Source: a virus. From it: a stretch of 64,000 nucleotides of DNA. The DNA is taken from positions 118,758 through 182,757 of IMG/VR virus record IMGVR_UViG_3300022701_000122. One strand, written 5' to 3'. Every line of letters starts with the position of its first letter. Position 1 is the stretch's first letter. The position numbers and the translations under genes are program-made. Shown here piece by piece: positions 6,880-61,779 of this stretch. The notes under the pieces were generated by a model. It had not been told where the DNA came from and made no database searches. It was given only the letters and a program-made list of their open reading frames with translations.

Positions 6880-6939
6880 AATAAAGAGATGTTCTCATCA
6901 TTATTTTTTCATTGTTTAATATATAAGGAGAGTTATATT

Positions 6940-9231
6940 ATGACTGTAAAATGTGAAATTTGTGGAAGAGAATTTGAAAAAGTATTGGGTTTATCGAGAC
7001 ATATTGCTCATGCTATTAAAAATGATAATGTACGACATAATGGGATAACTGTAAGAGAATATTATGATAAATATATAAAAATTGATGAGAATGAAGGGAT
7101 ATGTCCAACTTGTGGATCAGAAACAGATTTTAAATCTATGGGGCGAGGTTATTCTAAATATTGTCCAAATAGAAAATGTTTAAGAATGAGTAAAGAAACT
7201 ATAAATAAAAGAAAACAAACTAATTTAGAAAAATATGGTGTTGAAAACCCATTATCAAATAAAGAAGTTCAAGAAAAACGAAAACAAACATTTATTAAAA
7301 ATTATGGAGTAGATAACCCATTAAAAAATAAAGATATTCAAAAAAAAGTAAAAAGGACTTGTTTAGAAAAATATGGTGTTGAAAACCCATTATCAAATAA
7401 AGAAGTTCAAGAAAAACGAAAACAAACAATGGTTAGACGATATGGTGTTGAAATATCGATTCAAAATAAAGAAATAAAAGATAAAATAAAGAAAACTAAT
7501 ATAGAGCGATATGGTGTAGATAATCCTGGAAAGTCTAAACAAGTTCAAGAAAAAATGAAGAAGACTAATATAGAACGACATGGTGTAGAAAATGTGTTTA
7601 TGATAGATTCTTTTCAAGAAAAAAGAAAGAAATCAATGATTAAAAAATATGGTGCAGAATATCCAATTCAAAATAAAGAAATAAAAAATAAAATAAAGAA
7701 AACTAATATAGATCGATATGGTGTAGAAAACCCATTACAAAATAAAGAAATAAAAGATAAAATAAAGAAAACTAATTTAGAACGGTATGGTACTGAATTT
7801 GGTCTTTCTTCAGAAGAAGTAAGAAAAAAAATTGAACAAACAAATACGGATAGATATGGTGTTAAGTCAACTCTTTCAGTTCCAGAAGTTCAAGAAAAAA
7901 TAAGACAGACTAATATTAAAAGATATGGTGTAGAATATCCGATTCAGAATAAAGAAATAAAAGATAAAATAAAGAAAACTAATTTAGAGCGATATGGTGT
8001 AGATAATGTGTTTATGTCTGACAAAATAAAGAAGCGAATTAAAGAAATTAATTTAGAACGATATGGTATAGAATATCCAGCTAAAAACAAAGAAATTTAT
8101 GATAAAGTTAGAAAAACAAATATGAAGAGATATGGAGTAAGAAACTATTCACAATCAAACGAATATAAAGAAAAAATTCAAAAATATTGGTTTAACAGAT
8201 TAATGAGTAATAAAACTATATTATCCAAAGTTGAACCATTATTTACTATAGATGATTTTGATGGTTTTTCAGATGGTCAAGAGTACACATTTAAATGTAA
8301 AAAATGTGATTCTATTTTTAATGGTAGAATAACAAATGGGTTAATTCCAAGATGTTATACATGTTATCCGTCTCATGGTACATCAATAGGTGAAAGAGAA
8401 ATATCTGAATTTTGTGAACAATATACAGAAGTTATAAATAATAGTAGATCTATATTAGAAGATGGAAAAGAAATAGATATATTTTTACCAGAATTTAATA
8501 TTGGTATAGAATTTGATGGGTTATACTGGCATAGTGAATATATTATAAATAAAGATTATCATCTTAATAAAACACTAAATGCTTTAGCTGTTGGGATTAA
8601 TCTTATTCATATTTTTGAAGATGAGTGGTATTCCAAATCAGAAATAATAAAGTCTATGTTGCTTTATAGAATGGGTAAAATAGAAAATAGAATATATGGA
8701 AGAAAATGTGAAATAAGAGAAGTATCTAAAAAAGATGAAATAACATTTTTAGATAATAATCATATAAGCGGATACGTTGGATCAAAAATAGCTATTGGAT
8801 TATATTATGAAGATGAACTTATATCAATAATGACATTTGGTAAATCAAGATTTAATAAGAAATATAATTATGAACTAATACGATTTTGCAATAAATTATT
8901 TACTACTGTTATTGGTGGAGCATCAAAATTATTCAAATATTTTATTTCAAATTATTCTATTTATTCTATTATTTCATATTGTAATATGAGATTTTCTACA
9001 GATGGCTTTTATTCAAAAATTGGGTTTGATTTAATTGATATTAGTAGACCAAATTATTTTTACGTTAATAGTAGTAATATACGTGAATCGAGAATTAAAT
9101 ATCAAAAACACAAATTAAAAGATAAATTAGAGACTTTTGATAATAAATTAACAGAGTATGAGAATATGCAATTAAATGGATATTATAGAATTTATGATTG
9201 TGGAAATTTAGTTTATACATGGGAGAAGTGA
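6940..9231 (+). CDS. Putative homing-type endonuclease: Zn fingers + 14 x 23-aa repeats + PD-(D/E)XK (Vsr-like) domain
   Basis: CxxC/HxxH N-terminus; TNLExYGVENPLxNKEIKEKIKK repeats; EIDIFLPEFNIGIEFDGLYWHSE; start after AAGGAG (the ORF track starts at 6889). Confidence 0.8.
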   Translation: MTVKCEICGREFEKVLGLSRHIAHAIKNDNVRHNGITVREYYDKYIKIDENEGICPTCGSETDFKSMGRGYSKYCPNRKCLRMSKETINKRKQTNLEKYGVENPLSNKEVQEKRKQTFIKNYGVDNPLKNKDIQKKVKRTCLEKYGVENPLSNKEVQEKRKQTMVRRYGVEISIQNKEIKDKIKKTNIERYGVDNPGKSKQVQEKMKKTNIERHGVENVFMIDSFQEKRKKSMIKKYGAEYPIQNKEIKNKIKKTNIDRYGVENPLQNKEIKDKIKKTNLERYGTEFGLSSEEVRKKIEQTNTDRYGVKSTLSVPEVQEKIRQTNIKRYGVEYPIQNKEIKDKIKKTNLERYGVDNVFMSDKIKKRIKEINLERYGIEYPAKNKEIYDKVRKTNMKRYGVRNYSQSNEYKEKIQKYWFNRLMSNKTILSKVEPLFTIDDFDGFSDGQEYTFKCKKCDSIFNGRITNGLIPRCYTCYPSHGTSIGEREISEFCEQYTEVINNSRSILEDGKEIDIFLPEFNIGIEFDGLYWHSEYIINKDYHLNKTLNALAVGINLIHIFEDEWYSKSEIIKSMLLYRMGKIENRIYGRKCEIREVSKKDEITFLDNNHISGYVGSKIAIGLYYEDELISIMTFGKSRFNKKYNYELIRFCNKLFTTVIGGASKLFKYFISNYSIYSIISYCNMRFSTDGFYSKIGFDLIDISRPNYFYVNSSNIRESRIKYQKHKLKDKLETFDNKLTEYENMQLNGYYRIYDCGNLVYTWEK
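7218..8185 (+). repeat. Coding tandem repeat, 69-bp period (14 units)
   Basis: 67-bp exact duplication at 7224..7290 and 7362..7428; YG(V) motif every 23 aa. Confidence 0.85.
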
Positions 9232-21790: not shown

Positions 21791-21816
21791 AAAATCAATT
21801 TTATTTGGAGATCGTT

Positions 21817-23979
21817 ATGAAAGAAATTAGTTTAACATGTCAAGTATGTGGAAAAGTAACTAAAACTGAAAGTGGTCTTGGATTACATATTTCAAGATCT
21901 AAAAAAGATCATCCTACCATTAAAGAATATTTTGATCTTTATATCAAAGAAGAACAAGATGGAATTTGTTCTTTAGATGGCTGTGAAAATAAAACCAAGT
22001 TTAGAAATTTGGTAAAAGGGTATGGTCCTTATTGTTCTCCAAAATGCATGAATAATTCACCGGAGAGAAAGAAAGCTATAAAGGAAGGAGTAAGGAAAAA
22101 GTATGGTGTTGATAATGTATTTCAATCAAAGAAGATTAAAGAAAAAACTAAACAAATGTATTTAGAAAAATATGGTGTAGAACATAATTCTCAACTTAAA
22201 GAAGTAGTTCAAAAAAGAAGAAATACAATGTTAAGAAGATATGGTGAAACTCATTATTTAAAAACAGAAGAGGGAATGGATCGAGTTAGAAAAACCAATT
22301 TAGAAAAATATGGTACTGAATATGTGTTACAAAATGAAGATATTAAAGCTAAAGCAGATGCTACTGTTAAAGAGAAATACGGTGTTGATAATGTATTTCA
22401 AAATGAAGATATAAAAGAAAAATCAAGAGAAACGATACAAGAGAAATATGGTGTTGATAATGTATCTCAAAATGAAAATATAAAAAATAAGAAAAGAGAA
22501 ACAAATCTTAGAAGACATGGTGTTCAACAACCTTTTCAATCTGAAAAAATATGGAACAAAGTTAAACAAACTTGGTTAAGTAAACATGGATTTGATAATA
22601 TATCTAAACTTGGTGAGACAAAAGATAAAAAGAAAAAAACATCTTTAAAAAATCATGGTGTAGAACACCCTCTTCAATCAGAACAAGTTAAATCAAAAAT
22701 GAAACAAACTAATTTAGAAAGATATGGTGCTGTTGCACCTACTCAAAATGAAGGTGTAATGGCTAAAATGAGAGAAAATAATTTGGATAAATATGGAGTA
22801 GAGTATGTATCACAAGTAGAAGAATTTAAACAAAAAAAGATAGAAACCAATCTTGAAAGATATGGTTGTAAAGTACCAACTCAGAATAAAGAAATTATGA
22901 GTAAAGTAATAAGAACACAACATAAGAAATTTTTTAATGAATTATTAAATGGTAATAGATTAAATGATTTATGTATTCCTGATTTTGGATTGGATGATTA
23001 TAAAGGAATAAAATGTAAATACAATTGGATATGTAAAAAATGTAGTAATAAATTTAAAGATCATTTATATAATAATCTTATTCCAAGATGCCCTATCTGT
23101 TTCCCTATATATTCTTCTATGTCAGAAATAGAAGTTCTTGAATTTGTTAAATCTATTTATGATGGAGAAATAATTCCTGGTGATAGATCCATATTAAAAA
23201 ACAGAGAACTTGATATATATCTTCCAGAATTAAAATTGGCTATAGAGTTTAATGGTTTATATTGGCATAGTGAAGGAAGAGGAAAAGACAAAAATTACCA
23301 CATCGATAAAACAAAAAGATGTGCAGAGAAGGGTATTCAGCTAATACATATATTTGAAGATGAATGGAATTATAAACAAGATATCGTTAAATCAATATTA
23401 ATAGCGAAAATGGGATTATGTAAAAATAGAATATACGCAAGAAAATGTGAAGTTCATATTGTAACAAATAACAATGATATATGGGAATTTTATAATGATA
23501 ATCATATTCAGGGTCCAATTCATGGGAATACAACTTTTTCTTTAAAATATGAAAATGAATATGTTGCAATGATGACAATTGGAAAGAGTAGATTTCATAA
23601 AGAAGAAATTTATGAAATTCTAAGATTTTGTGTCAAAAAAGATACTATAGTTGTTGGTGGGTTATCAAAATTAATGAAACAAGTAAGACTTCATCAATTT
23701 GGAAAAGTTATCAGTTATGTTGATTTGAGATATGGAAATGGGAATGGTTACGAATTAGCAGGAATGAAATTTGTTAAATATACTCAGCCAAATTATTTCT
23801 ATGTTCGTAATGGTGATTTCATTAGAGAATCAAGAATTAAATATCAGAAACATAAATTAGAGAAACAATTAGAAATATTCGATCCAGAATTAACTGAATG
23901 GGAAAATATGCAATTAAATGATTTTGATAGAGTATATGATTGTGGGAATAAATTATATGAATTAGTAATAGAGAAATAA
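21817..23979 (+). CDS. Putative homing-type endonuclease: Zn fingers + 12 x 23-aa repeats + PD-(D/E)XK domain
   Basis: Paralog of 6940..9231; ELDIYLPELKLAIEFNGLYWHSE (the track starts at 21805). Confidence 0.8.
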   Translation: MKEISLTCQVCGKVTKTESGLGLHISRSKKDHPTIKEYFDLYIKEEQDGICSLDGCENKTKFRNLVKGYGPYCSPKCMNNSPERKKAIKEGVRKKYGVDNVFQSKKIKEKTKQMYLEKYGVEHNSQLKEVVQKRRNTMLRRYGETHYLKTEEGMDRVRKTNLEKYGTEYVLQNEDIKAKADATVKEKYGVDNVFQNEDIKEKSRETIQEKYGVDNVSQNENIKNKKRETNLRRHGVQQPFQSEKIWNKVKQTWLSKHGFDNISKLGETKDKKKKTSLKNHGVEHPLQSEQVKSKMKQTNLERYGAVAPTQNEGVMAKMRENNLDKYGVEYVSQVEEFKQKKIETNLERYGCKVPTQNKEIMSKVIRTQHKKFFNELLNGNRLNDLCIPDFGLDDYKGIKCKYNWICKKCSNKFKDHLYNNLIPRCPICFPIYSSMSEIEVLEFVKSIYDGEIIPGDRSILKNRELDIYLPELKLAIEFNGLYWHSEGRGKDKNYHIDKTKRCAEKGIQLIHIFEDEWNYKQDIVKSILIAKMGLCKNRIYARKCEVHIVTNNNDIWEFYNDNHIQGPIHGNTTFSLKYENEYVAMMTIGKSRFHKEEIYEILRFCVKKDTIVVGGLSKLMKQVRLHQFGKVISYVDLRYGNGNGYELAGMKFVKYTQPNYFYVRNGDFIRESRIKYQKHKLEKQLEIFDPELTEWENMQLNDFDRVYDCGNKLYELVIEK
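22084..22915 (+). repeat. Coding tandem repeat, 69-bp period (12 units)
   Basis: (K/R)(Y/H)G motif every 23 aa. Confidence 0.8.
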
Positions 23980-45845: not shown

Positions 45846-46556
45846 ATGCAATTTTACAACCCAAAAATGTCGTCGTTAAAAGTTGGAGTAACGCTTGTTA
45901 AGGGAAACATTCAAATTGAAATGGCAAGAGCGTTGAATCCGCAAGCACAAGGAAGGCCACAAGCAGGAGCAAAAGTATTTGATTGGAACAACAAAAATTT
46001 CTTTTCTCTATCACCCGGAGAATGTGTAGGAATAACAAGAAGTTTTGATCGAATATTACAGGGAACATATGAAGATCCAGATCCAAAAGCACCACAAGAT
46101 CTGAAAAATGTATTCAAAGTAACGCATTTCAGACAAAATCAACCATCCAGACTATTTCTCGCTCCTGGAAAAGACCCTCAAGGCAATCTTAACGGATGTA
46201 TGCTTCTTACCACATTGCCTCCACAGAGTGAAGGACAAAACATATCATTCTTGCTGAGAGGGCAAGAATTGTTGCTGTTTAAATCATATATTGAAAACGG
46301 CGCACGAATGCTTCCATTTATTCATGACTGCTTTGAAGCTGTTGATAGAGCAAAGAAGTATAAAGAAAATCAACAGAATCAACAGGGAGGTCAAGGTGGA
46401 CAGCAGAGTGGTGGTGGATATGGTGGATATGATCAGAACTATAGTGGAGGTGGTGGACAACAGAATCAACCACAACAAAATAGTGGTGGTGGAGGACAAC
46501 AAACACCACCACAAGAAAATGTTGATAATATAGATAATCAAGATTTTCAGTGGTAA
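45846..46556 (+). CDS. Putative single-stranded DNA-binding protein, Whirly/PC4-like
   Basis: KVFDWNNKNFFSLSPGE resembles Whirly YDWxxKQxFSLSxxE; Gly/Gln linker and acidic-aromatic tail (DNIDNQDFQW). Confidence 0.6.
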   Translation: MQFYNPKMSSLKVGVTLVKGNIQIEMARALNPQAQGRPQAGAKVFDWNNKNFFSLSPGECVGITRSFDRILQGTYEDPDPKAPQDLKNVFKVTHFRQNQPSRLFLAPGKDPQGNLNGCMLLTTLPPQSEGQNISFLLRGQELLLFKSYIENGARMLPFIHDCFEAVDRAKKYKENQQNQQGGQGGQQSGGGYGGYDQNYSGGGGQQNQPQQNSGGGGQQTPPQENVDNIDNQDFQW

Positions 46557-51484: not shown

Positions 51485-52531
51485 ATGTCAAAAAAATTAG
51501 AAACGTTTAATACATTTAACGATTTAATAAGAAGTATATCACTTGGTAGAATTAGTATTGATATTTTAAAAGATACAATAAATAAATTGGATACTATTAT
51601 TAAGAATACGTCATATGGTATATCTGAAATAAAATTTGAAGTTAATAAATACATGTATAATTCTTATAATGTTAGAATAAAAGGTACTGATGATTTATTA
51701 AATCTTATAAAATGGCGAATAATGAAATTAATGCCAAATAGAAAAATATATAATTTATATGGCAATATATTTGATATCAAAACAATGGGAAAATCATTAG
51801 ACTTAATAACTGATTATAATATCGATTCAAATTTACCAGAAAATGATGAAAAATTATTCACATTTATATCTGAATATGTAGATTCAAATAAAAAAATAAA
51901 CGGCTATACATCAATTCGTCAGTTATCATCAATTGCAGAATTTTATCATAATCAAAATGAACGAGAGCATATATGTTTTTATTGTGGAAATAGAAGAGAA
52001 GAATTTGGTAAACTACATAATAATGAATCTGATGATATTGGTTTAGTTACAGATTATATACCATTATGTAATGATCATATTATACCAGATACATATATGA
52101 ATATAACAAAAATATTTAGATTCTGTTCGTCGCATAATTTATATGGATATAATGGAAAATGTATGTATGTTCATGGTCATGATTATAAATTAGAAGTTAC
52201 ATTAAGATTACCAAAAGATTATTATGGATTTACTATAGATTTTGGAAAATTAAAAGATAAAGTAAATAAATATATAGTAGATAGATTTGATCATTCTTAT
52301 GTTAATCAAATTTTAAAAGATGTTAATCCAACTGCTGAAAATATTATTCTTTATATATGGTTGGTATTAGAAAAAGAAGCATTGTTAAAGGGATTATATA
52401 AATTGAGATTATGGGAAACTACAGAATCATATGTTGATTTAGAATATAATGATATTTTAATGTCTGATTATAGAAATTCATATATATCTGATAGGTATAT
52501 ATATGTTCCTGAAATGGACGATGATTCATAA
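51485..52531 (+). CDS. queD: Fusion: unknown N-terminal domain + QueD (6-carboxytetrahydropterin synthase)
   Basis: ITKIFRFCSSHNL...KCMYVHGHDYKLEV...IDFGKLK...FDHSYVN...NPTAENI...LWET. Confidence 0.85.
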   Translation: MSKKLETFNTFNDLIRSISLGRISIDILKDTINKLDTIIKNTSYGISEIKFEVNKYMYNSYNVRIKGTDDLLNLIKWRIMKLMPNRKIYNLYGNIFDIKTMGKSLDLITDYNIDSNLPENDEKLFTFISEYVDSNKKINGYTSIRQLSSIAEFYHNQNEREHICFYCGNRREEFGKLHNNESDDIGLVTDYIPLCNDHIIPDTYMNITKIFRFCSSHNLYGYNGKCMYVHGHDYKLEVTLRLPKDYYGFTIDFGKLKDKVNKYIVDRFDHSYVNQILKDVNPTAENIILYIWLVLEKEALLKGLYKLRLWETTESYVDLEYNDILMSDYRNSYISDRYIYVPEMDDDS

Positions 52532-55152: not shown

Positions 55153-55174
55153 ATATCAATAATTTTTGAATATG

Positions 55175-55212
55175 AACGGTTTATATGATCTTATTCATAT
55201 AAACCGTTTTTT
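55175..55212 (+). terminator. Rho-independent terminator
   Basis: AACGGTTTATATGA / TCATATAAACCGTT plus T tract. Confidence 0.75.
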
Positions 55213-55229: not shown

Positions 55230-55832
55230 ATGAATGAAATCATATCAAAATTATTAAAGGATACTTATGTTGATAATAGAATTGGAATAATTAAATTTAT
55301 TGAAAATCAAGGAAAATACAAATTAGTTTCACTAACTAATATTTTATGTGAAACTAATTTTTTAGAAAGATTAAGAAAAGATGGAAATTTTGATGAGTAT
55401 TTTAAACGTGGTGAATATCTTACTACATTTTTAAATGATGAATTAAAAAAATTCTTTTTAGAAGAGTTGAATATTAAATATAATGATATATTGGATTTAA
55501 AATATATACAATTTGAAAAATTTAATAGTATTAAACTTGAGTGTGATCAAGTCTATATTCCAAAACCATTAAATTTATATACATTTATCTTATCGAATGG
55601 AATATTTTTATCATCAGATGAATTTAATAAAAATAAATATAATATAATTATGGAAAATAGTATAACGACAGATATATTTAATATGGAGTATTATATTTAT
55701 GAAAATATTATGGTATTTGTAGCATTTCATCCAGATTCTAAAAGAAAGACAATAACTTTTAATATTTGCCCTATTTTTTCAAAATTTATTAGAATATTTG
55801 ATATCATTAATAGTAGAGGATTTATGTTATGA
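55230..55832 (+). CDS. Hypothetical protein, C-terminal motif family
   Basis: NLYTFILSNG; ends FDIINSRGFML. Confidence 0.7.
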   Translation: MNEIISKLLKDTYVDNRIGIIKFIENQGKYKLVSLTNILCETNFLERLRKDGNFDEYFKRGEYLTTFLNDELKKFFLEELNIKYNDILDLKYIQFEKFNSIKLECDQVYIPKPLNLYTFILSNGIFLSSDEFNKNKYNIIMENSITTDIFNMEYYIYENIMVFVAFHPDSKRKTITFNICPIFSKFIRIFDIINSRGFML

Positions 55833-56335
55833 ATTTATCGAAATTAATACAAGATGAAATATTTTTCAAAAAATATGATGAATTATTAGACTATATTAAT
55901 GATAAATATAGTGATAAAAAATACACTTTTAATGGTAAAGTTAAATTACATGAAAAAATAAGAAAATATGTTACTGAATATTTAAGAAAGTATAATAGGA
56001 ATAATATTAAATATATAGATTATAGAATATCATTTGGTTCTAAACCATTAGTAAAAAACATTTATATAATTCCATCAAATTTATATAGTGCATTAAATAT
56101 AAAATTTGGTATATTTATAGATTATCATTATTTTAAATCTATGATAAATAAATTTAAACCAACCGAATTTAAATTTACAAATATATATGTATATAAGAAT
56201 GAATTAGGAGAATTTTTTGATGGTCATTTAAGTGGAAATAATGGTTTAGTTTTTGATTATACATTGAATTATGATCTATATATTGGAGTAGAAAAGATAT
56301 ATGATGTCTTGTCAGAGAAAGGATATATATTATGA
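55829..56335 (+). CDS. Hypothetical protein, C-terminal motif family
   Basis: SNLYSAL; ends YDVLSEKGYIL. Confidence 0.7.
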   Translation: MNLSKLIQDEIFFKKYDELLDYINDKYSDKKYTFNGKVKLHEKIRKYVTEYLRKYNRNNIKYIDYRISFGSKPLVKNIYIIPSNLYSALNIKFGIFIDYHYFKSMINKFKPTEFKFTNIYVYKNELGEFFDGHLSGNNGLVFDYTLNYDLYIGVEKIYDVLSEKGYIL

Positions 56336-56862
56336 TGAGTTATTTGAATATAAGAAGGGTTATAGATGAAACTAATAATATAATCCAAAAAGATATAAAT
56401 AATATAAGATTAAGATTTAAATTTATATTTGATGAACGAAAAATTGATACTAAATTTATAGAAGAAAATCATAAAAATTTTGAAAGAGAAGTTAAAAAGT
56501 ATCTAATTAAGCATGGTGCAACTATAGATAAAATTGATTTTGATGTTATGAATAGATCAATTCATATAAATTATAATAATAATAGATTATTGGCACCATC
56601 TATACATGACCCACGAAACTTTTATACATATATTTGTGTTAATGGTTATATATTACCATATAGAGAATATTTAGAAAAATTGCAACATAGATATACATAT
56701 AAAAATGAAAAGTATATATCCAGTAAAGCTATACATTCCGATATATTTGCATATTATATAAATCCAGTCAGTACATTTACAAAAAATATTCTTTCAACTA
56801 TACTTATCTATGATTTTAACAGAATAATTATTAAGTTAACCAACATCAATTTTTTCATTTAA
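56332..56862 (+). CDS. Hypothetical protein, paralog of the upstream pair
   Basis: RNFYTYICVNG. Confidence 0.65.
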   Translation: MMSYLNIRRVIDETNNIIQKDINNIRLRFKFIFDERKIDTKFIEENHKNFEREVKKYLIKHGATIDKIDFDVMNRSIHINYNNNRLLAPSIHDPRNFYTYICVNGYILPYREYLEKLQHRYTYKNEKYISSKAIHSDIFAYYINPVSTFTKNILSTILIYDFNRIIIKLTNINFFI

Positions 56863-56879
56863 GATAAAAAGGAGAAATC

Positions 56880-57596
56880 ATGAATGAATTAAATGAAAAT
56901 CCATCATCAACAGATGTTTTAGATCCACAATATCCATTGATGATAAAATTGAAAGAAAAGGCACCAGGAACTCATGCTCATTGTAAAAAAGTATCGTCTT
57001 TATTAATAACACTTGGTAATGAGTTTAAACTCGATACTCACAAATTGGAAATAGCTGGAATGTATCATGATATTGGTAAAACAGTCGATCCAAAATATTT
57101 CAGCGAAAATCAAAGAGAAGATGATAAGAATCCCCATGATACGCTTGATCCGTGGATGTCAAAAAAGATAATAACAACTCATGTATCAGATACAGCAATA
57201 ATTCTTCTTCCAGATAATAATATACCAAGAGATGTTATACAGTGGTGTTGTCAACATCATGGGACGAGATTATTGAAAATATTTTATGATCGTAGTAAGA
57301 GCAAAAATGAAGATGATTACAGATATAAAACACAAAGACCACGATCAATCGAAGCTGGTCTTTTAATGCTTTGTGACACAGTAGAAGCAAGATTTAAATC
57401 TGAATTTAGTTCTTCAGAATATGATCACGAAACATTATTTGATGAAATATTTAATGAAATAGTTGCAGATGAGCAATTCGATTATGTAACTATGTCATTT
57501 TATCAACAAAGAAAATTAAGAGAAATCATGATTGAAGAAATGAAGAGTGAGCATCATAAAAGAGTAAAATATGAAGAAAACGGTAACGGAAATTAA
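56880..57596 (+). CDS. Stand-alone HD-domain phosphodiesterase, PgpH (7TM-HD) type
   Basis: APGTHAH, YHDIGKT..P.YFSENQ, NPHD, THV, QHHGT.LL..FY, YRY..P, LMLCDTVEA. Confidence 0.88.
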   Translation: MNELNENPSSTDVLDPQYPLMIKLKEKAPGTHAHCKKVSSLLITLGNEFKLDTHKLEIAGMYHDIGKTVDPKYFSENQREDDKNPHDTLDPWMSKKIITTHVSDTAIILLPDNNIPRDVIQWCCQHHGTRLLKIFYDRSKSKNEDDYRYKTQRPRSIEAGLLMLCDTVEARFKSEFSSSEYDHETLFDEIFNEIVADEQFDYVTMSFYQQRKLREIMIEEMKSEHHKRVKYEENGNGN

Positions 57597-57611: not shown

Positions 57612-57692
57612 AGTAATAAGTAATTGTTGTGTAAATTTTTTACGCAACGGATTTGTTATGTTAATTAATTTTTATTAGAAAGGAGTATTTTA

Positions 57693-58372: not shown

Positions 58373-59416
58373 ATGAATTCGTCAACCAGAGAAAAATTCA
58401 TTTTCACAGCAGATATCCATTTAAAGATGTGGAATGATAAAAAAAGTAATGATGATGGTATACCACTTAGATTAATAGAAACAATTGATACAATCGATCA
58501 TATGTGTAATTATGCTTTAAATAACGATATTCCAAAGTTAGTAATAGGTGGTGATATAAATGATCTTAAAAATACCATTCATACAAGAGCTTTTGATTAT
58601 TTTAGACGTAAAGTGCTACTTAAGTATAGAAGTATACATTTTGTGTTACTTCATGGGAATCATGACATTGGATCGAATGTTGAAAATGAATCTTCTATAA
58701 ATTTGTTAAGTGGTTACGGAAATGTTTCATCTATAACTGAACCATTCTTCACTGATAATATAATGTATATTCCACATTCTAAAAATATTATAAATCATAT
58801 AGAAAATTCATCACCAGCAGATATATTAATATCTCATTTTGGTTTATCAGATGCACATTTAGCATCTGGAATATCATTAAAAACTAATATATCGATGGGC
58901 GATTTATCAAAATTTAAATTAGTATTACTTGGTCATTATCATACTCCTCAGAAAATAGAAAATGATACTACTAAATTATATTATGTTGGTTCCCCTATAC
59001 CACTTCGTCGTGATGAGCATGGAGAAACAAAAAGATTTCTCGTTATAGATCCAGATGATTTATCAGTAGAAAGTGTGGAAACAAAAGGGTATAGGAAGTA
59101 TTATAATTTTATAATTGATGAATCATCAAAGAGTAATCTTAAGACAATGTTGGAAAATATAGAAAAGAGGAAAAAAGAGGGGCATCATGTAATCGTTAGA
59201 AATAAACTCAAAGAAGTTCCAAAAGAATTGGATACTTCTAAAGAAGATATTGTATTATTAGATGAATATGAAGAAGAATACGAAATACGTGGAATAACAT
59301 CTAATATGCAAATTAAAGATCAAATGAAAAAATGGCTTGAAATAGAAAATGTTCCAGAGCGGGATAGAAAAAAATACATGAAAGTTGGATTAAAAGCTAT
59401 AGGGGGTAATCAATAA
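58373..59416 (+). CDS. Mre11/SbcD-like (T4 gp47-like) nuclease
   Basis: TADIH, GGDIND, HGNHD, SHFG, LGHYH, YVGSP. Confidence 0.93.
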   Translation: MNSSTREKFIFTADIHLKMWNDKKSNDDGIPLRLIETIDTIDHMCNYALNNDIPKLVIGGDINDLKNTIHTRAFDYFRRKVLLKYRSIHFVLLHGNHDIGSNVENESSINLLSGYGNVSSITEPFFTDNIMYIPHSKNIINHIENSSPADILISHFGLSDAHLASGISLKTNISMGDLSKFKLVLLGHYHTPQKIENDTTKLYYVGSPIPLRRDEHGETKRFLVIDPDDLSVESVETKGYRKYYNFIIDESSKSNLKTMLENIEKRKKEGHHVIVRNKLKEVPKELDTSKEDIVLLDEYEEEYEIRGITSNMQIKDQMKKWLEIENVPERDRKKYMKVGLKAIGGNQ

Positions 59417-61779
59417 TGAGACAAGTAATATTCAAAAAAATAGAAATGCATAATTTCAAATGTTTCGAACATATAGATTTCGAATTTACACCGAATAGAT
59501 TCGTTATTGTTCAAGGGAATAATGGGCAAGGAAAAACAACATTATGTTGTGATGGTATAGTATATGCACTATATGGCAAAACAACCAAGAATATAAAAGC
59601 AGATGATGTAATACGAATAAGAAGTGGTAAAAATACATATGTTAAATTGACGTTTAGTATAGATGACGATGAATATAGAGTAGAACGATACAGAAAACAT
59701 AAAGTTTATAAAAATGAATTCTTAATATATAAAGATAATGGTAAAACTCCAGTTGATGTATCTATTGAAGACATATTAATGCCATTTAATATATTTATAA
59801 ACTGTTTAATGTTCTCTCAGTTTATAAAGAAATCTTTTACTGAAGAAACAGATGGAAATCAGAAAAAGATTTTTGATATGATGTTAAATTTGGATGCATA
59901 TGAAGAATATAGACAATCTATAAAAAATAAAGAAGATGAATTAAGTAAGAATAAAATACCAACTATATCATCTGAAATAGAATTTAATGAAAAATATTTA
60001 AATACCAGAAATGCAGAATTAGAAAATATTCGTAAATCTGAACAATCAGAAAAAGATAATCATGACAAATCGGTAGAAGATATAAATAAAGAAATAAAAC
60101 AATTATTAGATAAAAAATCAAAATTTGAAGCCGAATTAAAAACTCATGATATTAAAGATATAAAACGACAGTTAACCCAATATGAAATAGATCATACAAC
60201 TCTTAAAAACAAAATAGAGAGTAAACAAAGGGAATATAATCAAGATATAAATCTTATACGTCAGAAAATAGAATCAGATAAAAATAATGAGTTAAATCGA
60301 CAATTAAGAGATATAACTGATAAAATAAATCAATTGAATAATAAATTATCAAATCTTGATATCTCATTTAATAATAATAGATCTGGTATCGAAAATGAAA
60401 ATCAAAAAGCTAAATCTAAATATCTATTTGATAAATCAAATATAGATGAAGAATTTAATAGACAAGTAGAACCTGTTAGAGAACGACTTCAGACATATTC
60501 AATGGAATTATCTAATTTATCAGATAAAAAAGTTGAGATAATGGAATCGATGAAAACCGTAAATGATAGATTAAAAACTATGACTGATGGATTGAATAAA
60601 GATGATCCAACGTGTTATGCATGTGGTCAAAATTTATCTGATGAATATAGTAAATCTCAAATATTATCTGAAGTAAATAATATGAAAACAGAACTTAAAA
60701 GATTGAAACAAAATCTTGATAATATCGAAAGTTCATCTGAAAATTATGGAAAAGAAATAGATAAAGAATCTCAAAATATGGATAATATAAACAAATCAAA
60801 ATCTGAAAAGATGGAACTGCTTGAAGATTGGAAAGTAAATGTTAAACATTCTCTAATATATAGATTAGATAATATAACAACTGAATATCAGAGAGATAGA
60901 GAAGCATTAAATAATAAATTATCTGATTTAAATAATGATAAAACTAAAATAGAATTAACATTAGAAAATAAATACAAAAATAAATTGAATGATCTGATAG
61001 ATAGAGAAACAAAAAGACATAATGATGAAATTAATGATATAAATGATAGAATTGAAGTAGTTGGATCTATAATTTTAGAATTAACCACAACTCTTGATTT
61101 ATTAAATCAATTAGCAAATAATTTTAATGAATGCGTTAAAGAAATCGAAATGTATGAAGCCAGACTCAGAATAATGAATGAAAATAGAAAATTAAATAAA
61201 GAAAAATATGATGAATCTGTTAAAAATATACAATCTTCTATATTGAATATATCGACTAAAATAGATATTAACAATCAAGAGTTGAATAAGATAAAGACGG
61301 ATATAGAAATATTGAAATTCTGGAAAAATGCATTTTCATCTACTGGAATTAAAGCTGTTCTTCTCGATGAATCTATACCTATCATTAATTCTCGTGCGTC
61401 TGAATTATCTGAAATGACTGATAATTTAAGAGTAAGATTTAGTTCCCAAAGTCAATTAAAATCTGGAGAAATGAGAAATAAATTTTCGGTTAATTGTATT
61501 CATACTGAACATTTAACAGATTCAAGGGATTGTTTTTCTGGAGGCGAAGGTCGATTAATTGATATCATAACATTATTATCATTACGACATCTTCTTGAAC
61601 ACATGACAAATACACATTTCAATATAATCATAATGGATGAAATTTTAGACGCATTAGATCCAAAAAATGTTGACATTGTGATAAATATGTTGAATACATT
61701 ATCTAATGATTATATTGTTTTGTTAATTTCACATACATTAAGAGATACTGTTGAGGCGAATGAAATATTAACAGTTTAA
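59416..61779 (+). CDS. Rad50/SbcC-like (T4 gp46-like) ATPase
   Basis: GNNGQGKTT, coiled coil, Zn-hook CYAC, FSGGE, IMDEILDALD. Confidence 0.95.
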   Translation: MRQVIFKKIEMHNFKCFEHIDFEFTPNRFVIVQGNNGQGKTTLCCDGIVYALYGKTTKNIKADDVIRIRSGKNTYVKLTFSIDDDEYRVERYRKHKVYKNEFLIYKDNGKTPVDVSIEDILMPFNIFINCLMFSQFIKKSFTEETDGNQKKIFDMMLNLDAYEEYRQSIKNKEDELSKNKIPTISSEIEFNEKYLNTRNAELENIRKSEQSEKDNHDKSVEDINKEIKQLLDKKSKFEAELKTHDIKDIKRQLTQYEIDHTTLKNKIESKQREYNQDINLIRQKIESDKNNELNRQLRDITDKINQLNNKLSNLDISFNNNRSGIENENQKAKSKYLFDKSNIDEEFNRQVEPVRERLQTYSMELSNLSDKKVEIMESMKTVNDRLKTMTDGLNKDDPTCYACGQNLSDEYSKSQILSEVNNMKTELKRLKQNLDNIESSSENYGKEIDKESQNMDNINKSKSEKMELLEDWKVNVKHSLIYRLDNITTEYQRDREALNNKLSDLNNDKTKIELTLENKYKNKLNDLIDRETKRHNDEINDINDRIEVVGSIILELTTTLDLLNQLANNFNECVKEIEMYEARLRIMNENRKLNKEKYDESVKNIQSSILNISTKIDINNQELNKIKTDIEILKFWKNAFSSTGIKAVLLDESIPIINSRASELSEMTDNLRVRFSSQSQLKSGEMRNKFSVNCIHTEHLTDSRDCFSGGEGRLIDIITLLSLRHLLEHMTNTHFNIIIMDEILDALDPKNVDIVINMLNTLSNDYIVLLISHTLRDTVEANEILTV

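Follow-up and report, generated by a model that had tools for sequence, protein, structure and literature searches.

The stretch of DNA analysed here, referred to as the window, is a 64,000-nt part of the IMG/VR virus record IMGVR_UViG_3300022701_000122. The whole record has a length of 182,757 bp at an estimated completeness of 58%, shows a GC content of about 27%, and holds nearly all of its genes on the plus strand. Encoding a split multisubunit RNA polymerase (RNAP), topoisomerase II subunits, helicases, SbcCD, and seven tRNAs, it can be assigned to a jumbo phage on the basis of this gene content. Our subject is an open reading frame (ORF) of 238 amino acids (aa) on the plus strand at positions 56880–57596 of the window, predicted to encode a soluble HD phosphodiesterase of the PgpH type, and being the only gene of the HD superfamily (the only HD match) in the whole record. 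Its ATG is preceded, with a spacer of 5 nt, by the Shine-Dalgarno sequence AAGGAG (56869–56874, plus strand), a strong ribosome-binding site, and a Pfam PF01966 match delimits its core HD domain with a binuclear metal site (residues 33–170; 56976–57389, plus strand).

A phmmer search against the sequences of the Protein Data Bank (PDB) revealed a single strong match, the HD domain of Listeria PgpH/Lmo1466 (4S1B; E 3.7e-37), aligning residues 15–232 of the query with positions 2–221 of the chain, while the next match had an E-value of 0.36. The protein also matched Pfam HD (E 1.5e-12) and NCBIfam HDIG (E 2.5e-11). All of the motifs that the preliminary description of this DNA had listed are present in the translation, namely APGTHAH, YHDIGKTVDPKYFSENQ, NPHD, QHHGTRLLKIFY, DYRYK, and DTVEA. 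An AlphaFold2 (AF2) model based on 22 homologues reached a mean predicted local distance difference test (pLDDT) score of 90.4, and a fold search placed 4S1C and 4S1B at the top, with template modelling (TM) scores of 0.80 by query and 0.91 by target, a root-mean-square deviation of 2.0 Å, and an identity of about 35%; the remaining HD families (HD-GYP, YqeK, YpgQ, dNTPases, and Cas3) did not exceed a TM score of 0.45. The protein displays no hydrophobic segment and neither a seven-transmembrane (7TM) nor a 7TMR-HDED domain, with Pfam reporting HD alone. By sequence and fold, it belongs to the HD-domain family of PgpH; it stands outside the full-length PgpH architecture, the defining membrane and sensor module being missing.

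Other HD classes are much more distant. The HD-GYP signature was not found, Pfam HD_5 giving an E-value of 0.047 and 13.9 bits against a cut-off of 27.2, and the HD-GYP structures 3TM8, 4MCW, 4R8Z, and 9RBZ revealed TM scores of 0.38–0.45 against the AF2 model. A CRISPR HD nuclease was rejected as well, as the scores of Cas10/Csm1 (20.4 bits; cut-off 170) and Cas3 HD (16.8 bits; cut-off 43.45) stayed below the family thresholds; Cas3 of T. fusca showed a TM score of 0.29 against the model. PHROGs holds no family for the phage HD protein, and BFVD no similar viral structure, the best TM score there being 0.42.

The active site was compared residue by residue in PgpH numbering, which equals the 4S1B chain position plus 493 and was checked by Lys547 (HDIGK) and Asp648 (D.VEA) as named in PMC12072042. 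All seven metal ligands of PgpH have their counterparts in the phage protein, namely H34 (His514 of PgpH), H63 (His543), D64 (Asp544), H101 (His580), H126 (His604), H127 (His605), and D166 (Asp648), and so does the catalytic lysine, K67 (Lys547). Family motifs outside the metal site are also present (P.YF.ENQ, NPHD, YRY, and a C-terminal R..Y). The preliminary description had proposed that a phage encodes a soluble HD domain of the PgpH type whose active site is complete, and this is borne out by the match to 4S1B, the full set of motifs, and the missing 7TM part. The published background given there is also correct, since PgpH hydrolyses cyclic di-adenosine monophosphate (c-di-AMP) to pApA and is inhibited by guanosine tetraphosphate (ppGpp) (PMC12072042, PMC10117814).

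For conservation analysis and tree reconstruction, 38 non-identical viral sequences and the 80 best cellular relatives from species-representative prokaryote genomes were used. The seven metal ligands and the catalytic lysine are found in all 38 viral homologues, which are otherwise only 32–54% identical to the window protein, and in 78–80 of the 80 cellular relatives. Outside the metal site, there are 33 positions at which one residue is shared by the two sets, with a frequency of at least 85% in each; E76-N77-Q78, N84, H86, Y149, Q199, R228, and Y231 are among them. An invariant active site and these shared positions among such divergent viral sequences indicate selection for catalysis on a PgpH-like substrate, and the viral clade is held under purifying selection.

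Relatives of the phage protein form a group of their own. A word-indexed search yielded 57 clusters of relatives of 159–274 aa (E ≤3e-36), with a best identity of 54%. An exhaustive HMMER search, covering 1.84 billion representatives, ranked proteins of about 180–270 aa first, comprising solo forms and fragments, followed by the C-terminal domains of proteins of about 450–900 aa with an identity of 32–38%. In IMG/VR, we uncovered 40 loci with a relative, all of them solo ORFs of 234–273 aa except one cut by a contig end. The 80 cellular relatives span 14 phyla, and the complete genes among them all encode proteins of about 490–1120 aa (most of them 670–890), displaying five to nine hydrophobic or transmembrane segments before the HD domain; none of the 80 is of the viral type, giving no sign of prophage copies in this set. 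In the maximum-likelihood tree, one branch parts the 38 viral from the 80 cellular sequences (Shimodaira–Hasegawa-like approximate likelihood ratio test support 100), and the soluble and the 7TM-fused forms are separated by one change; no donor phylum could be identified from the tree. In the ESM Atlas, the three nearest clusters (62–106 members) are 94–100% viral, and the clusters ranking next hold bacterial PgpH with 7TM domains. As the Atlas also contains a few short clusters from bacteria, the soluble form may occur outside viruses as well.

The carriers of this gene are large phages. Genome sizes, estimated as record length divided by CheckV completeness, exceed 200 kb for 37 of the 39 carrier records, and the three complete carrier genomes have sizes of 276, 302, and 315 kb. 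A homologue of the large RNAP subunit of the window phage was detected in only 6 of 38 carriers and is missing from two complete or near-complete genomes; the carriers do not form one lineage and comprise at least two kinds of phages. The nearest HD relatives of the window protein, L002 and L004, belong to G002 and G004, which have no detectable homologue of the RNAP subunit, while the RNAP kin, G001, G015, and G018, carry more distant HD copies. As the nearest HD relatives are not the RNAP kin, this suggests that the HD gene has been exchanged between jumbo-phage lineages. A tblastn search against 50,697 GenBank phage records gave eight matches, and the six that were inspected are full-length PgpH genes with seven or eight transmembrane segments, sitting in UNVERIFIED records and representing host DNA; they were rejected as homologues from cultured phages. 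Within this search, with six of the eight matches inspected, a PgpH-type gene was found in no verified cultured phage. A cyanophage origin of the carriers was also dropped, as psbA was not found in 38 carrier records.

Regarding the local organization, a terminator-like hairpin with a T-rich tail lies 28 nt past the stop codon of the HD gene (57624–57650, plus strand) and another terminator-like hairpin lies upstream (55174–55209, plus strand), both detected by a consensus scan that returned two sites in 4.3 kb against 0.7 expected from shuffles. The former is the probable end of a transcription unit, and the latter probably closes the preceding unit, with the unit of the HD gene starting after it. 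Adjoining the HD gene upstream are three small genes (55230–56862, plus strand) coding for 200, 168, and 176 aa, none of which showed a Pfam or PHROG match. Their stop and start codons overlap at 55829/55832 and 56332/56335, and the last of them stops 17 nt 5' of the HD gene. Judged by this arrangement, the HD gene is probably the last in a four-gene unit between the two hairpins and co-transcribed with the three small genes.

The N-terminus of the HD protein lacks the capsid-targeting leader M[YF][IL]SE[QE]; capsid delivery was dropped for this reason, and the protein probably does not enter by injection but is synthesized once infection has begun. A search of the virus record for DAC (diadenylate cyclase), PhoH, 2H-phosphoesterase, and 7TM-HD (PF07698) genes returned none of them. 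Lacking PhoH, the record offers no link to the cellular phoH-pgpH-ybeY operon, and lacking a DAC domain, no phage-borne cyclase partner, so that both ideas were abandoned.

On its 3' side, the HD gene is followed in the window by a gene of unknown function and then by SbcD/SbcC. The SbcD-like protein (Metallophos, 347 aa) and the SbcC/Rad50-like protein (787 aa) are encoded at 58373–61779, which begins some 0.8 kb past the HD gene, and the start of SbcC directly adjoins the stop of SbcD; the gene between HD gene and SbcD codes for 188 aa. Among the carriers, the HD gene is preceded in one lineage by genes for Rad52 and a ClpB-like ATPase and by a small ORF, and followed in another by a NAD-ligase, a zinc ribbon, and an HNH gene; no neighbour gene is conserved across the carrier lineages.

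Some further genes of the window are worth mentioning in their own right. At 51485–52531, a protein of 348 aa carries a 6-pyruvoyl-tetrahydropterin synthase (QueD-like) domain at residues 207–320 only, its first 200 residues matching no family; it may be a fused DNA- or tRNA-modification enzyme of the queuosine/archaeosine type. Two ORFs of 780 and 724 aa (6889–9231 and 21805–23979), each directly 3' of an RNAP subunit gene, match the homing-endonuclease/HNH PHROGs phrog_3339, phrog_559, and phrog_12131, some of them as four to six separate stretches. A protein of 236 aa (45846–46556), encoded just upstream of the topoisomerase II genes, shows a weak match, below the cut-off, to the Whirly single-stranded-DNA-binding fold (E 2e-4).

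As for the substrate, the cellular family occurs, across phyla, where c-di-AMP is made, so that this nucleotide is both the most likely and the most parsimonious candidate for the substrate that the viral clade had ancestrally. A DAC domain was found in 46 of the 50 genomes with the nearest cellular relatives. The four misses are all draft metagenome-assembled genomes (MAGs) of Saprospiraceae (L058, L071, L088, and L089), other Saprospiraceae of the set being DAC-positive; they may reflect incomplete MAGs or a lineage keeping PgpH without DAC. Among 14 control genomes, the 7TM module of PgpH was detected in four (Bacillus, Synechococcus, Bacteroides, and Thermotoga), all of them DAC-positive; the three DAC-negative controls (E. 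coli, Caulobacter, and Sulfolobus) lack it. The preliminary description had suggested that the phage lowers host c-di-AMP or destroys second messengers of the cyclic-oligonucleotide-based antiphage signalling system (CBASS) or of type III CRISPR. For the first half, the DAC counts, the controls, and the 33 shared positions provide indirect support; the second half received no direct support.

In our view, held with moderate confidence, the gene codes for a catalytically competent version of the PgpH HD phosphodiesterase, soluble in the cytoplasm and unregulated, whose constitutive activity on c-di-AMP causes the pool of this nucleotide to collapse during infection. The enzyme would be synthesized in the infected cell, its transcription unit lying among the replication/repair genes, with the help of its own strong ribosome-binding site, and would hydrolyse 3'3'-c-di-AMP to 5'-pApA via attack of a metal-activated water, as PgpH does. 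Because it is free of the sensor, it would act constitutively, and the host c-di-AMP pool would collapse. A possible pay-off would be the release of potassium and osmolyte uptake inhibited by c-di-AMP and of growth control linked to it; alternatively, c-di-AMP would be removed as an input to antiviral effectors sensing it. Depending on the host infected, the benefit may be takeover of the cell or escape from immunity based on c-di-AMP or on other cyclic nucleotides.

Several hints were obtained on the host, which is probably a diderm. All carrier loci are low in GC (24–41%) and use Shine-Dalgarno sites, which are found at 28–83% of their ORFs against a background of 5–17%; in the window, a Shine-Dalgarno core lies upstream of 32 of the 68 ORFs (47%) compared to 6% of random positions. 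This use of Shine-Dalgarno sites argues against a Bacteroidota host. Ten of the 39 carrier records encode an endolysin combining GH108 and PG_binding_3; G015 and G018, which belong to the three close RNAP kin of the window phage, are among them. Cultured phages with this endolysin type have diderm hosts only, mostly Proteobacteria, with some Bacteroidota and Synechococcus. For the endolysin of G018, the nearest ESM Atlas cluster is labelled mostly Thermodesulfobacteriota, a lead only, with few members labelled. The cultured phages nearest by RNAP are only 19–29% identical, the other genes of the window revealed no cell-wall-binding or lysis domain, and the names of NCBI/UniRef clusters were uninformative on the host. 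The GC content of 27%, the Shine-Dalgarno sites, and the GH108 endolysins fit diderm phyla that make c-di-AMP and those that do not alike.

A number of observations weigh against c-di-AMP as the substrate within the infected cell. The stem of the viral clade has a length of about 1.2 substitutions per site and its members are just 27–35% identical to cellular HD domains, so that substrate specificity could have shifted. The viral clade has not kept the G-P that follows YRY in cells or Thr129, another cell-conserved position, and shows D15, R100, D104, and E220 as residues seen in viruses only. The E-L where the domain joins the membrane module is gone too, as expected for an HD domain detached from that module. 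The HD gene sits among genes of DNA metabolism, with no signalling-related neighbour. Furthermore, kin of the window phage carry GH108 endolysins, whose relatives in cultured phages stem mostly from phages of Proteobacteria, and the two proteobacterial control genomes have no diadenylate cyclase; if the host is such a proteobacterium, there would be no housekeeping c-di-AMP to erase.

Parts of this also bear on an anti-defence role, in which PgpH chemistry is kept but the main target is an immune second messenger rather than housekeeping c-di-AMP, for example 3'3'-cGAMP, cUA, or cAAA/cAAG of CBASS, the cyclic oligoadenylates of type III CRISPR, or c-di-AMP isomers of guard systems. The protein would then be an HD-fold counterpart of Acb1, Apyc1, and AcrIII-1. 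We consider this unlikely, although phages do degrade immune nucleotides using other folds (PMC12657218), and HD-superfamily phosphodiesterases of jumbo phages have been predicted as counter-nucleotide enzymes (Iyer et al. 2021, PMC7824862). The long stem and the lost cell-conserved positions would allow a shift in specificity, the GH108 endolysins (in the 10 carriers named, two RNAP kin among them) point to diderm hosts possibly without housekeeping c-di-AMP, and the record revealed no further enzyme known to degrade such signals (2H family). However, the positions shared with the c-di-AMP-specific PgpH are very well kept, and no conserved neighbour related to defence or anti-defence was found. 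The gene is also missing from the verified cultured phages among the 50,697 records, which include those of hosts rich in CBASS and type III systems, and this argues against a general-purpose anti-CBASS tool. In addition, degrading molecules of the c-di-AMP type would be expected to trigger PanDA, and perhaps Panoptes, and not to evade them (PMC13640721, PMC12657218). It is a doubtful proposition that these proteins represent a new HD-fold class of phage immune-signal erasers, sensor-free and long-branched, which would degrade CBASS or type III CRISPR messengers or the c-di-AMP read by TIR-SAVED, perhaps in hosts without housekeeping c-di-AMP, and which would be the natural trigger whose detection PanDA-type guards for c-di-AMP evolved for.

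Less probable still is a substrate outside cyclic-nucleotide signalling, with the protein serving its replication and repair neighbours as an enzyme of the nucleotide pool or of nucleic acids, such as a dNTP/NTP phosphohydrolase, a pApA/nanoRNA phosphodiesterase, a (p)ppGpp hydrolase, or an HD nuclease. Surroundings of DNA metabolism are indeed seen in every phage lineage (topoisomerase II, helicases, and SbcCD; Rad52 and the ClpB-like ATPase; NAD-ligase and HNH), but gene position says little on function where no neighbour is conserved across lineages. The HD superfamily is versatile, and weak NCBIfam matches below threshold to YqeK, RNase Y, and the Cas3/Cas10 HD were obtained, yet these lie far under their cut-offs (e.g., 25.6 bits against 70), and dNTPases, YqeK, YpgQ, and Cas3 HD remain at TM scores of no more than 0.45, compared to the 0.80–0.91 of PgpH. 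PgpH is also known to bind ppGpp; the conservation pattern of PgpH, however, extends across the whole domain of 220 residues. Finally, a non-catalytic binder, be it a sponge for c-di-AMP or ppGpp or an inactive remnant, is scarcely credible, common as phage sponges for cyclic nucleotides are (Acb2, Acb4, Tad1, and Tad2), because the eight catalytic residues are invariant in viral sequences of 32–54% identity, which speaks for selection for catalysis.

Returning to the c-di-AMP phosphodiesterase that we favour, its presumed substrate is a signal of wide importance. In many bacteria and archaea, c-di-AMP controls the balance of potassium and osmolytes as well as cell-wall homeostasis. Very recent work has also linked it to the conflict between viruses and their hosts. 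High c-di-AMP suppresses phage production in Listeria. A TIR-SAVED effector senses c-di-AMP made by the host DacZ, taking it as a sign of infection, and c-di-AMP rises on infection in Haloferax (bioRxiv 10.1101/2025.06.19.660554). PanDA and Panoptes guard pools of the c-di-AMP type, 3'3'-c-di-AMP in the case of PanDA, against interference by phages (PMC13640721, PMC12657218). The papers on TIR-SAVED, PanDA, and Panoptes make no mention of a phage enzyme degrading c-di-AMP, and the literature searched contained no description or test of a PgpH-type enzyme from a phage, nor a description of a phage enzyme degrading c-di-AMP. The phage counter-measures to c-di-AMP described so far are all sponges; the viral HD family would supply a degrading enzyme, its members probably erasing the c-di-AMP signal in infected cells. 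The family is confined to uncultured jumbo phages and widespread among them, and the host-takeover biology of these phages is largely unknown. The general idea has already been published, the deployment of HD-GYP and other phosphodiesterases by jumbo phages to counter nucleotide signals being a prediction of Iyer et al. 2021 (PMC7824862).

Among known systems, the cultured jumbo phages share with our case that their HD-GYP and other HD phosphodiesterases were likewise predicted computationally to degrade nucleotide signals (Iyer et al. 2021, PMC7824862). Their HD proteins (Goslar, Noxifer, PaBG, RAY, and phiRSL1), however, belong to other HD families, with TM scores of at most 0.42 in BFVD. 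Acb1 (a 2H phosphoesterase), Apyc1 (with a metallo-beta-lactamase fold), and AcrIII-1 (a ring nuclease) resemble the proposed enzyme in being small soluble phage proteins that destroy a messenger, but folds and substrates are unrelated, and none of the three is known to have 3'3'-c-di-AMP as its main substrate. DhhP/Pde2 (DHH-DHHA1) and AtaC are likewise soluble cytoplasmic enzymes and hydrolyse c-di-AMP (PMC10117814), whereas their folds are unrelated and they are cellular housekeeping enzymes. The closest known system is PgpH itself (Lmo1466) of Listeria monocytogenes, with the structures 4S1B and 4S1C, together with its orthologue PgpH/YqfF of Bacillus subtilis. The likeness extends over the whole HD domain, both sharing the seven metal ligands, the catalytic lysine, the motifs P.YF.ENQ, NPHD, QHHG, YRY, and D.VEA, and the C-terminal R..Y. 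In contrast to PgpH, the phage protein has neither 7TMR-HDED nor 7TM, is soluble and presumably unregulated by sensor input, and is encoded by viruses whose copies form a separate clade on a long stem, in which the G-P after YRY is gone, as are a few further positions conserved in cells.

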